64,000 bases of DNA from a phage. Both the position numbers and the translations under genes were made by a program. Positions 6,713 to 62,931 of the stretch are shown one piece after another. Each line of letters opens with the position of its first letter. Position 1 is the stretch's first letter. Under the pieces are notes generated by a model that saw only the letters and a program-made list of their open reading frames with translations, was not told the origin of the DNA and searched no databases. Location of the stretch: the sequence record NC_101837.1; one strand, given 5' to 3'.

Positions 6713-8173
6713 ATGGATAGCAGAAGTTCAGAAATCATTGCCTCACAGAAAGATGATGCCCTGAGAATGTTGCAGGCTGCACGTATGTATCTCCTTGAAA
6801 AGCTGCCGTTTTATGGCACACTGCTGTCAGGGTTGCAGTTCGTAGAAAACCACACATGGTGCTCCACCATGGCAACCGACCATAAACGCATTTATTACAG
6901 CCCTGAGTTCATTATGGGATTGGCTGATGAACGCAAGGCTATTCTTAAGGCTTCTCTAACTGACGAGCAGTTTGAGATGGCTGAAGTTTTCTATTCCCCA
7001 AAATCTGTGAAAGAGGTGGCCTTCCTTCTGTCACATGAGGTGGGGCATATTATCTGTGATCACCTGGTCCGTGGTAAAAGCTTTGAGCCGGAACTGTTCA
7101 ATATTGCTTGTGATCACGTTATCAACACAGGTCTTGTGGTTGACTTTAGCAAGCCTCCTTGTGTTTTCTTCCCGAAGGGGAAAAGCACTACGTTCGTGAA
7201 AGGCAAGCCTTTTGGCTTCTTAGCTAACTGCTACTGCGACATGAAGTTTCATGGATGGATTGCTGAGAACGTCTATGCAGTTCTTGATAAGCAAAGAGAT
7301 CAGAATAACGGTAAAAGTAAGAGCGGTAAAGGTGAGAACTCTCAAGGAGATAAGCGACAAACCGATGATCACATGAGTGGGAACGGTGGCACCAGTGATG
7401 ATCTTGGAAAGGCTATGGGGTATGATCAGCCACAACCTGTAATCAGCCAATCTGATAAAGATCAGGCCATGCAGGACTCTGGTGACATGCTTGAGGCAGC
7501 AATGCAAGCTTCCGGAGGTCGTTGCCCTGAGGCGGTTCGTGAGTTTGTCAAGAATAGAGGTAAGCCTGTAATCAATTATATAGACATCATCAAGCAGCGT
7601 ATGTTGTCTAAAAGAAAGGCCGAACTGACCTACAGAAAACCTGGTCGCCGATCTGGGTCTTTGACCAGCACAATGCGAAAAGTCGGAGCTATAAACAAGA
7701 ACCAGCACGTTATTGTTCCTGGTCGTAATCCGGAAAACACTATAGATATTGTGGTGGCTTTAGACGTTTCTGGCTCGATCTCTCAAAGAACTTTAAAGAA
7801 AATGTTCAATGAAATCACCGGATTGTGCAATCTGTATAAAGAATTTAAGGTTACAATGTTCTGTTGGTCAACTGAGGTTGGAGAGGTTAAAGTATACACT
7901 CGCGGCAACATAGACGAAATGATCAACTATGAGGTCCACTCAACATGGGGAACAACAGCTGCTTGCGTGTTCGAGTATCTGGATGCCAACATACCAAATG
8001 CAAAAGATGTCATCGTCCTGACCGACCTATACTTTGAGCATAACTTTGAACAAAAGGCTGTTGACAACAAGTGGAAAAAGTACGATACTTTATGGGTTCT
8101 AACCGAAGGGTATAATAAAAATTATATCCCTAGCTTTGGTAAAACTGTGGAATTAATCGAGTACGCTAAGTAA
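6713..8173 (+). CDS. von Willebrand factor A domain protein with N-terminal HExxH metallopeptidase-like domain (DUF2201/CobT-like; usual MoxR partner)
   Basis: HEVGH motif; MIDAS motif ALDVSGSIS in C-terminal half; ATG 6713 preceded by TGGAG; upstream ATG 6692 sits in loop of hairpin 6685-6699. Confidence 0.6.
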   Translation: MDSRSSEIIASQKDDALRMLQAARMYLLEKLPFYGTLLSGLQFVENHTWCSTMATDHKRIYYSPEFIMGLADERKAILKASLTDEQFEMAEVFYSPKSVKEVAFLLSHEVGHIICDHLVRGKSFEPELFNIACDHVINTGLVVDFSKPPCVFFPKGKSTTFVKGKPFGFLANCYCDMKFHGWIAENVYAVLDKQRDQNNGKSKSGKGENSQGDKRQTDDHMSGNGGTSDDLGKAMGYDQPQPVISQSDKDQAMQDSGDMLEAAMQASGGRCPEAVREFVKNRGKPVINYIDIIKQRMLSKRKAELTYRKPGRRSGSLTSTMRKVGAINKNQHVIVPGRNPENTIDIVVALDVSGSISQRTLKKMFNEITGLCNLYKEFKVTMFCWSTEVGEVKVYTRGNIDEMINYEVHSTWGTTAACVFEYLDANIPNAKDVIVLTDLYFEHNFEQKAVDNKWKKYDTLWVLTEGYNKNYIPSFGKTVELIEYAK

Positions 8174-59579: not shown

Positions 59580-59656
59580 TGGTCTCCACGGAGTGATTCG
59601 AACACTCGACCTCCTGATCCCAAATCAGGCGCTCTACCAAGCTGAGCTACGCGGAG
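59580..59656 (-). tRNA. tRNA-Pro (anticodon UGG), CCA encoded
   Basis: by-eye cloverleaf: acceptor CUCCGCG/CGUGGAG (C1-G72), D-stem GCUC/GAGC, anticodon loop UUUGGGA, T-arm GAGUG-UUCGAAU-CACUC. Confidence 0.75.
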
Positions 59657-59667
59657 TATTTACTATT

Positions 59668-59742
59668 TGGTGGCCCTGGGTGGAATTGAACCACCGTCTG
59701 GCGATTATGAGTCGCTTGCTTGAACCTTCCAGCTACAGGGCC
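59668..59742 (-). tRNA. tRNA-Met or Ile2 (anticodon CAU), CCA encoded
   Basis: acceptor GGCCCUG/CAGGGCC, anticodon loop CUCAUAA, T-arm GGUGG-UUCAAUU-CCACC; D-stem has one mismatch. Confidence 0.65.
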
Positions 59743-59743
59743 T

Positions 59744-59819
59744 TGGTGCTGATGGCAGGACTTGAACCTACAACCTATTGATTACAAATCAATTGCACTA
59801 CCGATTGTGCTACATCAGC
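59744..59819 (-). tRNA. tRNA-Thr (anticodon UGU), CCA encoded
   Basis: acceptor GCUGAUG/CAUCAGC, D-stem GCAC/GUGC, anticodon stem AUUGA/UCAAU, loop UUUGUAA, T-loop UUCAAGU. Confidence 0.8.
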
Positions 59820-59824
59820 AAAAA

Positions 59825-59923
59825 GGTGCTAGGCGATGGAATCGAACCACCTATGTATTCAACGACTACCTCGTCTATTTTCAGGATTAAAAATCCTCGC
59901 CCTTGCCAAAGGGCTTACCTAGC
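59825..59923 (-). tRNA. atypical tRNA-like gene (possible anticodon UUU; ~30-nt extra arm)
   Basis: canonical T-arm GGUGG-UUCGAUU-CCAUC and 7-bp acceptor GCUAGGU/GCCUAGC, D-arm GCCC-UUUGGCAA-GGGC, anticodon region AGGAUUUUUAAUCCU, but ~97 nt long. Confidence 0.4.
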
Positions 59924-60021
59924 TCAGTATGTTGACCATGTTGCTAGTCGGCGATGACGACTGTAACATTTGATAATCCGGTTCTGCTTCCGGCTTTCGC
60001 TTAATTACAAGGTCAACAATG

Positions 60022-60112
60022 TGGCGGAGAGTAATGGAATCGAACCATCATCGAGTCATCCTCAACGGGACGGTTTTCAAGACCGCTTGAGCACCATTGC
60101 TCCCTACCCTCC
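60022..60112 (-). tRNA. tRNA-Ser (anticodon UGA), type II, CCA encoded
   Basis: acceptor GGAGGGU/ACUCUCC, anticodon arm GCGGU-CUUGAAA-ACCGU, extra arm UUGAG-GAUGA-CUCGA, T-loop UUCGAUU; D-arm spacing non-canonical in my parse. Confidence 0.55.
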
Positions 60113-60226
60113 TTTATAAATTATACTGATAATGACACTGATTTTCGAGCAGTTAGTGACTAGTATAAACGACGATAAATATCAATGCCATTATCTGTAT
60201 TATTTATGCATCTAAAAATATAAATT

Positions 60227-60313
60227 TGGTGGGGAGTGGTGGAGTCGAACCACCCGAGTCGCAATGACAATAGATTTACAGTCTACACCGCTACCTCTAC
60301 GGGATAACTCCCC
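60227..60313 (-). tRNA. tRNA-Tyr (anticodon GUA), type II, CCA encoded
   Basis: acceptor GGGGAGU/ACUCCCC, anticodon arm GUAGA-CUGUAAA-UCUAU, T-arm GGUGG-UUCGACU-CCACC; D-arm spacing non-canonical. Confidence 0.6.
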
Positions 60314-60317
60314 AATT

Positions 60318-60392
60318 TGGCACCCCGTACTGGACTCGAACCAGTGTCAACGGCTTAGAAGGCCGCTGCTTTATCCACTAAGCTAACAGGGC
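60318..60392 (-). tRNA. tRNA-Arg (anticodon UCU), CCA encoded
   Basis: acceptor GCCCUGU/ACGGGGU, D-arm GCUU-AGUGGAUA-AAGC, anticodon arm GCGGC-CUUCUAA-GCCGU, T-arm ACUGG-UUCGAGU-CCAGU. Confidence 0.7.
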
Positions 60393-60492: not shown

Positions 60493-60828
60493 CTATTTGC
60501 TAACAGGCTGTATTTCTGTAGTAAATGGCATAAAAGGTGCTGGTTTTTCAGCCTCTTCCACTACCACCTCTTCCTCTTCACCAAACATCTCATCATATTC
60601 TTCCTGCATTCGGTCTGCCTTATCAAGAACATACTCTGCAATGCTTTGACGAATATTTTGTTTGGTTTTCGGGTCCAACATCAGCTCTCTTAAAACTTTG
60701 TGAGCTTCTGGAACCATCGCTATAAAAGATTCCTTCATATCAAGGATGTTCTTCTCTAGCTGAATGGCGTTGGACTCCTCTTTCAGAGGTCTGCCTCTAC
60801 GGCGACGCTTTTTAGTTGTATCCGCCAT
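60493..60828 (-). CDS. AT-hook-containing DNA-binding protein
   Basis: ORF track 60493..60948; ATG 60826-60828 (MADTTKKRRRRGRPLK...) preceded by GGAGGAAAC and by a consensus promoter; upstream open frame starts at TTG inside that promoter. Confidence 0.45.
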   Translation of the reverse strand: MADTTKKRRRRGRPLKEESNAIQLEKNILDMKESFIAMVPEAHKVLRELMLDPKTKQNIRQSIAEYVLDKADRMQEEYDEMFGEEEEVVVEEAEKPAPFMPFTTEIQPVSK

Positions 60829-60856
60829 GTTTCCTCCATTATCACGTGATAGGTGG

Positions 60857-60885
60857 ATTTTATCATAGCAAATACTGATTGTCAA
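60857..60885 (-). promoter_or_regulatory. sigma70-like promoter (TTGACA-17-TAAAAT)
   Basis: -35 at 60880-60885 and -10 at 60857-62 read on minus strand, 17-bp spacer, ~25 nt upstream of ATG 60828. Confidence 0.5.
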
Positions 60886-61174
60886 GTTCGCCGCAGGGTG
60901 GTATTCCCTGCGACTTGTCCAGCGTCCTGGACCAGCAAGACCCAACAAGTGGGTTACCAGAGGCCTATTACCCGCGCTTCGGCTCGACCTTGTTACAGGT
61001 TGGCTGGGGTCACATCGTCATGTGCTGGCTGCCCCTACCATTTTAAGTGTGGTGCACTATCAAGCCCTCTAAGGGGAACTCAGCCTTCTCCGAACCCTGT
61101 TTCAAAGCATCCAGAGATAAAGCCATCAAATTCATCTTTAAATTGGATATTCATCATGATACACGAAAACAACC

Positions 61175-61417
61175 TCATTGTAAAGCACAAATAAATAAAA
61201 CATACTTAATTTGTTTGTTATCAGGCTCAGGGTAGAAGTAGAAGATCTTGCTATCACCGATCTGAACACCACCATCCCAACAACATAGCCCATAACCTGT
61301 ATTCATACAAGCTAAGTCGTTGGCAAAATCTATTGCATCATCCAGTGCACGAAATTCACCTTCATCTTCTAAATAATCCTCATTCATGGAACGAAAAACG
61401 AGCTTAACCTTAAACAT
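61175..61417 (-). CDS. hypothetical protein
   Basis: 80-aa ORF. Confidence 0.35.
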   Translation of the reverse strand: MFKVKLVFRSMNEDYLEDEGEFRALDDAIDFANDLACMNTGYGLCCWDGGVQIGDSKIFYFYPEPDNKQIKYVLFICALQ

Positions 61418-61493: not shown

Positions 61494-61703
61494 TCAACAG
61501 ATTCCGGCCTTATCCTTCCTGTCTGCGTATTCTTTAATCGCAACCTCATCTGCATTAGTGACCAGGTCTTCAAAGTAACTCTCAAGCTCCTCGTCAATGT
61601 CAGGAGACCAGCCCTTTTTCCTGTCAGTGTGAATCGCAGACTTGTTAAACTTAGTACAGTTCTTTGCTACCGGATTGTTCATTAAGCACCCCTCAGCGTT
61701 CAT
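61494..61703 (-). CDS. hypothetical protein
   Basis: 69-aa ORF overlapping upstream gene by 11 nt. Confidence 0.3.
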   Translation of the reverse strand: MNAEGCLMNNPVAKNCTKFNKSAIHTDRKKGWSPDIDEELESYFEDLVTNADEVAIKEYADRKDKAGIC

Positions 61704-62271
61704 AGTAAATCTTATTTAACATTACCTCATCCTTTGCAGAAAGGATATCTAGATATGCATCACCGAATCTACCTGCAACAACCTCTGCATGATACATCAC
61801 TTCGTTAATATCGTCAAGAGTGATAACTGGATGACCGTATCTCTCTGAGTATTGTCTCAGAGTGCGATGTAGGGAGTCATCATCATAGGCAGACTTTTTA
61901 ATATCGCAAACACGACGAATAGCCTTGATGTCGAAAAACCCTGTACGATACCAACCAAGAAAAAGGTTTCGTGCAGTGTCAACATCTACATCAATACCAT
62001 TAAGAACCTTATCTACAAGATAGCTGTCATCCTTTGGACCAGCTTCCTTAGTGCGAATGTAGTTGCCATCTTTTCCAGGTGACATCTCCTTCTCATCACC
62101 AACCTGCATGCCATCATTTGGCGGTGTTAGCCACTTATCCGGATGCTTACGATCACGAGCGTTAGAATGATTACGCTGGAAACCGGGCTTCCACTTGAAA
62201 GTTTTCTCCATCTGTTCTTCATTCTGATAACGTTTTGCAATCTTTTCACGGTCATCTTTGCGTGAACCCAT
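61693..62271 (-). CDS. hypothetical protein
   Basis: 192-aa ORF; GAGGAGG 5 nt before ATG. Confidence 0.45.
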   Translation of the reverse strand: MGSRKDDREKIAKRYQNEEQMEKTFKWKPGFQRNHSNARDRKHPDKWLTPPNDGMQVGDEKEMSPGKDGNYIRTKEAGPKDDSYLVDKVLNGIDVDVDTARNLFLGWYRTGFFDIKAIRRVCDIKKSAYDDDSLHRTLRQYSERYGHPVITLDDINEVMYHAEVVAGRFGDAYLDILSAKDEVMLNKIYYER

Positions 62272-62640
62272 AGCTGCCTCCTCTTCAAGTTATAGAAAAA
62301 CTCACTGTATCGCTTTGTAACGAGCTTTTCTATCAAACTGGTGCGATTGCATTACCTGGTATAGTTTATATAGCTGTGGAGCGATTTAGGGGCCTTCTTG
62401 TCAGTTTCCACACATAAACTTCATCCAAGCTCGCGCGGGAGACTCTCAACCGACTCCTTACGGCGCTGGCAAGCTTTCGTCGGTGGTCCACATCAGTGCT
62501 CGGCCTTTGGCCTGCGCTATCGCTTCGCTCCCACACATGTTAACAGACCTGCATGTATGAACTTCTGTTATTGTGTGCACCAAGGAGGCCCGGCATCTCG
62601 CCCCTCGTAGGCGAGTGCCAATGAAGGGCCGACACTGCCC

Positions 62641-62775
62641 ATAGTAAGTAATAAATTTAAAACATGGTACTTAGGATCTAGTATATTCTACATAAGTTAA
62701 GTATATGTACTTAGTACCATAAGTACTAGATCTTTTATTTTTTATTATTTAGTTATTTTAGTTATATTCTTTATG
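62641..62775. other. AT-rich region with nested inverted repeats (candidate DNA-unwinding element)
   Basis: inverted repeats TAGTAC-N5-GTACTA (62712-62728), GTACTTAGTAC; long A/T runs 62731-62770. Confidence 0.35.
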
Positions 62776-62856
62776 TGTCCGTATCACGGACAGTTAGTGT
62801 CCGTATTACGGGCAGATGTGTCCGCGTGACGGACAGTAGTGTCCGTATCACGGACA
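62776..62856. repeat. four tandem 17-bp palindromes TGTCCGTnnnACGGACA at 21-22 bp spacing (iteron/operator array)
   Basis: copies at 62776, 62798, 62819, 62840; copies 1 and 4 identical, 2 and 3 one mismatch each; degenerate half-site at 62865-62880. Confidence 0.6.
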
Positions 62857-62931
62857 GTTAATAGTATCCGTTCCATGACGAACATAAAACATACGAATCC
62901 TTATAGTACAGATATTTAAGTTTTTACTGGT

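Follow-up and report, generated by a model that had tools for sequence, protein, structure and literature searches.

The 64,000-nt stretch of phage DNA analysed here (record NC_101837.1, hereafter the window) carries at 60886..61086, on its minus strand, a GC-rich element (island A) that we interpret as the rV5-lineage member of a family of structured non-coding RNAs widespread among virulent phages that infect Gammaproteobacteria. The region is 95-99.7% identical to 119 phage records, which makes it that of an rV5-like Vequintavirus, and the local genes lie on the minus strand, from which the RNA is read as well. The comparisons described below leave us highly confident that the element functions as a structured RNA. 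As to what it does, we favor a stable RNA that acts in trans, with a probability of roughly 0.55.

The evidence centers on a core of 42 nt (61004-60963), which in RNA sense reads CCAACCU-GUAAYA-AGGUCGAGCC-N5-GCGGUAAUGGG. When island A was used as a query in a sensitive blastn search, the matches comprised the rV5-like phages and 458 T4-like records that aligned over only 44 nt (window 60964-61007), and queries containing the core matched 980 to 1,077 of 50,697 phage records. The members that we inspected belong to Vequintavirus, Tequatrovirus, Jiaodavirus, Moonvirus, Kanagawavirus, Karamvirus, Dhakavirus, Phapecoctavirus and Pylasvirus. Besides T4, the core is found in six or seven further T4-like genera, in Phapecoctavirus and in the N4-like podovirus Pylasvirus, as well as in unclassified viral and metagenome contigs, one of them related to Pseudoalteromonas phages. 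Conservation beyond the flanking genes had been proposed as a check on the island, and the core is indeed kept across phage families whose flanks are unrelated, so that it is not a target inside a conserved gene. Members were recovered by exact-pattern scans (of IMG/VR, metagenomes and genomes) together with blastn. Pattern scans leaving any one of the three sub-blocks free returned the same true loci plus chance matches in coding DNA, indicating that the core travels as a unit, and looser scans for variants of its two inner helices (Py and Pz, see below) gave only chance matches in coding DNA. No true copy turned up when 185,579 species genomes of bacteria and archaea were scanned twice for the exact pattern (no match in the first scan and two chance matches in the second, both without the GGTAA continuation), and blastn of island A against 5,426 complete Escherichia coli genomes gave no match; a host origin of the motif was rejected on these grounds. 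As far as the exact-pattern scans and blastn reach, the motif seems to be restricted to virulent phages.

A covariance model of the motif (R1) recognized a sole credible copy in the window, at 60960-61006 on the minus strand (57.1 bits, E 5e-18), the other match scoring 8.9 bits (E 4.1). Compared with the consensus, the window core has one extra G in the Pz loop and an A for the G at the bulge. The rV5-like phages carry mosaic core variants, one of which is identical to the T4-like version, and this suggests exchange between co-infecting phages. Among the other records, 18 labeled as 'Campylobacter phage' (MG0656xx) are about 99% identical here to E. coli rV5-like phages, leaving their host label doubtful. 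Edwardsiella phage PEi20 (L063 508-551) has a second, diverged tandem copy of the entire element (17.4 bits) about 110 nt after the first, in which a Py pair has changed from A-U to G-C, a compensatory change, and the Pz loop is shorter.

The fold was derived from an alignment of 32 distinct cores, in which the extra G of the window type was removed to match columns. All 32 keep a closing helix, Px, of the form N0-C-C-A : U-(bulged G)-G-G-N10. In the window (minus strand) it pairs G61004, C, C and A61001 with U60967, G60965, G and C60963, leaving A60966 bulged. Two-sided changes occur in all four pairs (C-G to G-C, U-A or A-U; A-U to U-A, C-G or U-G), and the three inner pairs have zero unpaired cells in the 32 sequences. 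Slid registers were far worse as controls, and zero shuffles reached the observed covariation score. A bulge-free register of Px, present in many minimum-free-energy folds, was rejected in favor of the bulged-G register, because it fails in the Pylas type, L042, L050 and Karamvirus, which keep the bulged form. Px encloses an invariant hairpin, ACCU-GUAAYA-AGGU (Py; in the window ACCU 61000-60997 paired with AGGU 60990-60987 around the hexaloop GUAACA, 60996-60991), and the stretch CGA-GCC-N7-GGU-AA. We tentatively model the latter as a third short helix, Pz (GCC 60983-60981 with GGU 60972-60970 and an 8-nt loop in the window), by which 60963..61004 would form a compact three-way junction with the unpaired strands CGA (60986-60984) and AA (60969-60968). 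Sequence variation is restricted to the Py loop, the N5 loop and the positions just 3' of Px.

A further hairpin, P1, precedes the core. A helix stands at this position in every lineage, and its complementary arms come in 12 different sequence pairs (for example GGGAA/UUCCC, GGAAC/GUUCC, GUGG/CCAC, UGAGG/CCUCA, GAAUG/CAUUC and AAAGC/GCUUU), with 90.8% of cells paired compared with 54% in shuffles and with two-sided changes in five of five pairs. Its counterpart in the window, at 61006..61035 on the minus strand, pairs GGGG (61035-61032) with CCCC (61009-61006) and encloses CAGCCAG and an inner hairpin, CACAU-GACG-AUGUG (61024-61011). An extension of P1 in rV5-like phages, UGGU:GCCA, was considered and discarded, as it is not compensated in the diverged relative L042, whereas Px is. 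The comparative alignment that had been advised as a check for compensatory changes thus revealed them in P1 and Px. The structure also assigns the strand: the G-U pairs N0:N10, U-G at columns 6 and 39, and G24:U36 in the modeled Pz would be C-A mismatches on the other strand, so the folded strand is the minus strand of the window.

Island A does not appear to be translated. The original prediction had described stops in every minus-strand frame, and there are four in each of the three frames. On the plus strand, a 113-aa open reading frame (ORF) with a GTG start (60853..61194) is open across the island in the window. Among rV5-like phages, length differences of 1, 2 and 8 nt put its N-terminal half into another frame, and in L042 each of the three frames is interrupted by stops at this place. 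As the frame shifts in close relatives and is closed in L042, we regard island A as non-coding and the ORFs annotated over it as spurious. The motif itself was also considered as protein-coding, given that the differences between T4 and rV5 first looked synonymous (PTCNKVEPKRG). This was rejected because stops lie just upstream in both T4 and rV5, no start codon is present and other members change non-synonymously. Nor do the invariant blocks show variation at third codon positions or synonymous sites, the variation sitting in loops. That the conserved sequence is instead a DNA-level site, such as a target for recombination or homing or a binding site for a protein, or belongs to the 113-aa ORF, is extremely improbable in our judgment: the open plus-strand frame in the window and the mosaic variants of rV5-like phages count in its favor, but a folded single strand is indicated by the compensatory changes and by G-U pairs possible on one strand only, and the frame is not kept between relatives.

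The genomic contexts connect the motif to tRNA genes. In all 11 loci with tRNAs within about 0.7 kb, the motif is on the same strand as the tRNAs, and it lies inside or near (0.04-0.7 kb) a phage tRNA cluster in Phapecoctavirus, in contigs L037 and L008, in Pylas-like contigs and in rV5-like phages. In Phapecoctavirus it stands between tRNA-Thr and tRNA-Gly, in L037 it follows a tRNA by 43 nt and precedes a tRNA-like sequence by about 30 nt, and in Pylas-like contigs it is 0.2-0.7 kb from tRNAs. In L008 it ends a 1.7-kb tRNA region free of ORFs, with a strong intrinsic terminator (11-bp stem) coming after it, and in the window and L042 it lies about 0.5 kb upstream of the tRNA cluster. In the Phapecoctavirus and Pylas type, the motif is enclosed in its own 8-bp closing stem (GUUGUGAC/GUCACAAC). 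The tRNA regions of Pylasvirus (L039 2396-2720) and Phapecoctavirus (L040 2430-2940) also contain arrays of units in 12-20-bp stems (ACAGGUAAGAGCAUUG ... CAGUGCUCUUUCCGUUGUG), with tRNA-like cargo (for example a T-arm, GCGGUUCGAUUCCGC) that ARAGORN does not call; these look like leader-trailer processing stems around further small RNAs.

The reading that we prefer builds on the closing helix Px around the hairpin with the GUAAYA loop and on the invariant UCGAGCC-N5-GCGGUAA. About 30 nt remain unchanged between unrelated families of phages and over a range of host genera that extends from Escherichia to the relative of Pseudoalteromonas phages; this implies a precise molecular partner. The RNA would be made as part of tRNA-region transcripts, and the host RNases that release the tRNAs would trim it to a stable RNA of about 100-200 nt. 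It would then act in trans, the invariant junction serving as a surface bound by a partner that is conserved among host genera, possibly a host protein or RNA-protein machine and plausibly one that handles tRNA.

A possible but unlikely alternative is a cis-acting element that works on its own transcript, either through processive antitermination of the put type or as a site of RNase entry, blocking or processing, so that downstream tRNAs and genes are expressed. The put RNA of phage HK022, a short phage RNA whose sequence is constrained by contact with a conserved host enzyme, modifies RNA polymerase for processive antitermination, and invariance would likewise be expected of an element contacting a conserved host enzyme such as RNA polymerase. 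The motif is always in transcription units and on their sense strand. Both the window and L042 have it ahead of a gene and the tRNA cluster, and in L042 it comes right after a strong promoter, with no terminator until the next gene. In T4-like phages it always precedes vs.8. Other placements speak against a role in cis: in Pylasvirus the motif is about 700 nt downstream of the tRNAs, in L008 it is last before the terminator that ends the unit, and the closing stem of the Phapecoctavirus and Pylas type is as expected of an excised stand-alone RNA. Antitermination of the put type misfits both the operon end and the enclosure in a closing stem; moreover, put consists of two stem-loops in one phage group, and we liken it to the motif by description only.

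In T4 itself, the motif is found just after the stop codon of denV, between denV and vs.8. The RefSeq annotation of T4 vs.8 (L038 754-1413; NC_000866.4 64253..64912) is longer at its N-terminal end by about 40 codons, which span the motif. In other T4-like records vs.8 begins with MRTFLTG, and contig L015 does not keep the longer frame open, for which reasons the long version is probably a misannotation. Also in T4-like phages (L002 1450-1480 and homologues), a conserved hairpin, GCCA-NGGAA-UGGC, stands between the motif and the vs.8 start codon, and the GGA of its loop resembles a CsrA-type binding site. The proteins encoded next to the motif are unrelated between families and of unknown function (PHROG 1488 for vs.8, PHROGs 3330 and 5676 for the rV5 neighbors), with no significant Pfam match for any of them, and thus there is no fixed protein partner next door.

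These contexts also bear on a riboswitch-like aptamer, that is, a small-molecule sensor controlling the downstream gene. The junction nucleotides are highly conserved and the T4-like motif is 60-110 nt upstream of the vs.8 start codon, as such a sensor might be. However, a promoter parts the motif from the next gene in the window, tRNAs rather than an ORF follow it in the tRNA arrays, the downstream proteins have nothing in common and no conserved expression platform is seen, all of which makes this reading very improbable. We also weighed a new class of self-cleaving ribozyme that would cut tRNA-region transcripts. HDV-like (hepatitis delta virus-like) 'theta' ribozymes are small structured RNAs of phage tRNA regions with a role in transcript processing, and the new class would have a similar role. 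The small size of the motif, the variable peripheral helices P1 and Px around an invariant junction and loop nucleotides, and the repeated placement among tRNAs are all consistent with a ribozyme. Against this, no Rfam ribozyme family matches at E<=10, the hammerhead core (CUGANGA...GAAA) is absent, the supported helices misfit the nested double pseudoknot of HDV-like ribozymes and the T4-like copies lie away from tRNAs, leaving a ribozyme improbable.

A bolder variant holds that the junction is an RNA decoy, placed in tRNA operons, that would trap a host enzyme acting on tRNA. Candidate targets are an anticodon nuclease from a defence system against phages and the tRNA-guanine transglycosylase (TGT), which inserts queuine. 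The only lead, a weak one, is that Py reads C-U-G-U-A-A, as do positions 32-37 of tRNA-Tyr, including that of the window's own tRNA-Tyr gene. In 30 of 32 sequences, three letters of the Py loop spell GUA or GUG, which are the anticodons for Tyr and His. Judged from the sequences, the decoy is a speculative and rather doubtful proposal.

Several observations weigh against the trans-acting RNA. In T4-like phages the motif is always directly upstream of vs.8 and about 6 kb from the tRNA cluster, a position that would suit action in cis. In the window, island A lacks both a consensus promoter immediately upstream and a terminator after it, so the element could be only part of a longer mRNA. Recent horizontal transfer, rather than constraint, could account for part of the near-identity between families. 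As for the fold, the arms of P1 were chosen by eye, Pz is the weakest helix, and covariation cannot test Py and Pz since they are invariant (with the PEi20 paralogue as the exception for Py). Nearest-neighbor energies of the proposed junction (-1 to -7 kcal/mol) are less favorable than those of alternatives (-6 to -12 kcal/mol), core plus P1 have a folding z of +0.3, and RNAalifold prefers for the rV5 group a rival pairing of the upstream GGCUUG with CGAGCC. The folding energy of island A as a whole (z = -1.6 on the minus strand, with 17 of 200 shuffles as stable, and z = -1.0 on the plus strand) does not carry the case either; that the island is more than chance follows from comparison with other phages, not from thermodynamics.

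Searches against known RNA families argue for a new one. The Rfam/Infernal search suggested for the island found no family matching it among the 4,227 covariance models of Rfam 15. For 351 nt around the island at E<=10 it gave five chance snoRNA-like matches (10-16.5 bits), confined to the AT-rich leader, and scans of 6 kb, of the whole window and of the homologous loci returned only tRNAs, leaving island A empty. ARAGORN calls seven tRNAs in the window, none of them in island A, and none at the motif in at least 20 other loci, and the tRNA family RF00005 has no match around island A at E<=10. Searches of the open-access literature by sequence string, T4 gene names and topic found no description of the motif. 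With neither an Rfam match nor a published description, we rate it, on the basis of these comparisons, as a new family among the small structured RNAs of phage tRNA operons.

In genomic logic, the closest parallel is provided by rnaC and rnaD, small stable RNAs from the tRNA cluster of T4. They are non-coding RNAs of about 120-140 nt that are co-transcribed and processed with tRNAs and whose function is unknown (PMC9697503). The genomic logic and likely biogenesis of these species 1 and 2 RNAs resemble those of the motif, but we found no relation in sequence or structure. On the 63.5-74.5 kb stretch of T4, model R1 matches only 1357-1402, the copy downstream of denV, and rnaC and rnaD (7409-7672 of the same stretch) are unmatched and about 6 kb away. 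The tRNA-like 3' part of rnaC is lacking in the motif, and by eye only the short word GAGUAGC is common to rnaC/rnaD and some versions of the motif.

GOLLD and ROOL RNAs, theta ribozymes and put RNA each resemble the motif in single respects only. GOLLD and ROOL are structured RNAs of phages and prophages with unknown function, often found beside tRNA genes. They measure 500-800 nt, compared with a 42-nt core, and neither family matches the window; furthermore, they occur in prophages, whereas the motif was not found in any bacterial genome searched. Theta ribozymes differ by their nested double pseudoknot (P1, P1.1, P2, P3 and P4), the motif consisting of a P1 hairpin and Px around local hairpins, and no HDV-family Rfam match was found around island A. 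Hammerhead ribozymes and purine riboswitch aptamers share with the motif a closing helix around two hairpins and conserved junction nucleotides, but their junction strands differ: 7, 3 and 1 nt in the hammerhead and about 8, 8 and 3 nt in the purine aptamer, versus 0, 3 (CGA) and 2 (AA) nt plus a bulged G in the motif. Neither of the hammerhead strands CUGANGA and GAAA occurs in the 197-nt island sequence, for which Rfam gave no match, and no signature sequence of the purine aptamer or hammerhead was found in the motif. Possible resemblances to the 530 loop of 16S rRNA (GCGGUAAU), to RNase P (GUGCGGUAA), to the GUAAUA hexaloop of the L11-binding region of 23S rRNA and to the UGUAAU motif of the signal recognition particle (SRP) Alu domain form no part of our claim.

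Apart from P1 and the core, the features of island A are peculiar to the rV5 lineage. The island measures 189-198 nt and hardly varies among rV5-like contigs, and the homologous stretch of L042 is 173 nt. Its edges were set at the position matching the predicted transcript start of L042 and at the -35 box of the next promoter. At the 5' end on the minus strand, an rV5-only hairpin, CCCC-UUAGA-GGG, followed by CUUGAUAGUGC (61065..61076), is kept between the window and L042, and a similar unit of hairpin plus CUUG recurs 3' of the core. There, on the same strand, the sequence can be read as another rV5-only hairpin, ACCCA-CUUGU-UGGGU (60940..60954), which has been lost by deletion in L034; L042 has CCCCCAUAGAGGG in its place. 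The two strong hairpins to which the original prediction had drawn attention, GUCCAG-GACG-CUGGAC (60917..60932) and GCAGGG-AAUACCA-CCCUGC (60893..60911), are both present on the minus strand at those positions. The first shows a one-sided change from U-A to U-G in some rV5-like phages and is replaced in L042 by a different hairpin, GCUGG-GGACGGA-CCAGC; the second has no U-tract and is absent from L042. The idea of an independent small RNA or binding platform therefore survives in altered form: a conserved structured minus-strand RNA tied to tRNA genes is there, but these two hairpins are rV5-only and not its key element, the deep conservation lying at 61035-60963 instead. No intrinsic terminator was found by a scan of 60886-61080, the two 3' hairpins preceding AAGUCG and GGCGAAC.

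Upstream of the island, the minus strand carries a 21-nt block (AAAGATGAATTTGATGGCTTT, 61119..61139) that is 100% identical between the window and L042, the flanking genes being about 75% identical. The block is contained in a mini-ORF, which encodes MKDEFDGF* in L042 and has 25 codons in the window. In L042, the -35 box of the island promoter comes just after the block. The island of L042 is bracketed by two near-consensus promoters, the first of which (TTGACA-17-TATACT, 11/12) is a few bases upstream. For the window, the candidate island promoter is a promoter-like sequence, TTTACA-17-TATCAT (61156..61184, minus strand, 10/12), 70 nt upstream of island A, which overlaps the stop of an 80-aa ORF (61417..61175, minus strand) and is deleted in L042.

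The local surroundings of island A are as originally described. The segment 60886-61080 has 56.9% GC, compared with a window mean of 44.2% (standard deviation 3.6% for 195-nt windows), and only 0.1% of 195-nt windows are as GC-rich, namely island A, a non-coding island at 62421-62646 and one stretch inside an ORF; for the full element (60886..61086) the figures are 57% and 44%. It is flanked by the 80-aa ORF, with a gap of 290 nt between this and the next promoter, and by that promoter, the near-consensus TTGACA-17-TAAAAT (60857..60885, minus strand; 11/12, with extended TG), which bounds the island on its 3' side, carries a promoter annotation in phage Gotham and serves a 112-aa gene (60831..60493, minus strand). 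The tRNA cluster (59580..60392, minus strand), called by ARAGORN and Rfam, consists of Arg, Tyr, Ser, an odd 99-nt tRNA-like gene, Thr, Met/Ile2 and Pro. It begins 570 nt downstream of the core in RNA sense, and the tRNA-Arg end at 60392 is 494 nt from island A, in agreement with the distance of about 0.5 kb given before. The 99-nt gene (59825-59923, minus strand) is assigned a four-base anticodon (atcc) by ARAGORN and scores 29.4 bits with the Rfam tRNA model, at the threshold. Its Gotham homologue is annotated as a 97-nt tRNA-Lys-TTT, and it may be an insertion-bearing or otherwise unusual tRNA.

A second GC-rich non-coding island, island B (62400-62640, 57% GC), lies on the minus strand upstream of a 192-aa gene (61693..62271). 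It has no Rfam match and is found in Vequintavirus only (118 records at 88-100% identity). It was examined as a second copy of the motif and rejected, as the pairwise alignment was unconvincing, R1 did not match and the island is confined to Vequintavirus. Next to it, in the region 62650-62870, about five direct repeats of GTGTCCGTATCACGGACAG (62770-62870) stand beside a 21%-GC stretch with the palindrome GGTACTTAG...CTAAGTACC. From its sequence, the repeat region resembles an array of iterons or of an origin, or else a group of binding sites for a regulator.

If real, the motif represents an RNA family overlooked in some of the best-studied and most-sequenced phages, including T4 and the rV5-like and phAPEC8-like phages. 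It also corrects existing annotations, among them the start of vs.8 and the spurious ORFs over island A. Should the decoy proposal prove true, the motif would be the first RNA-based counter-defence of its kind, and one present in T4. Being short, described by a clear model and carried by genetically tractable phages, it is directly testable. The purpose of T4 rnaC and rnaD has been a standing question since the 1970s, and the placement of the motif at tRNA genes links it to the question of why virulent phages carry tRNA operons and extra 'small stable RNAs'.

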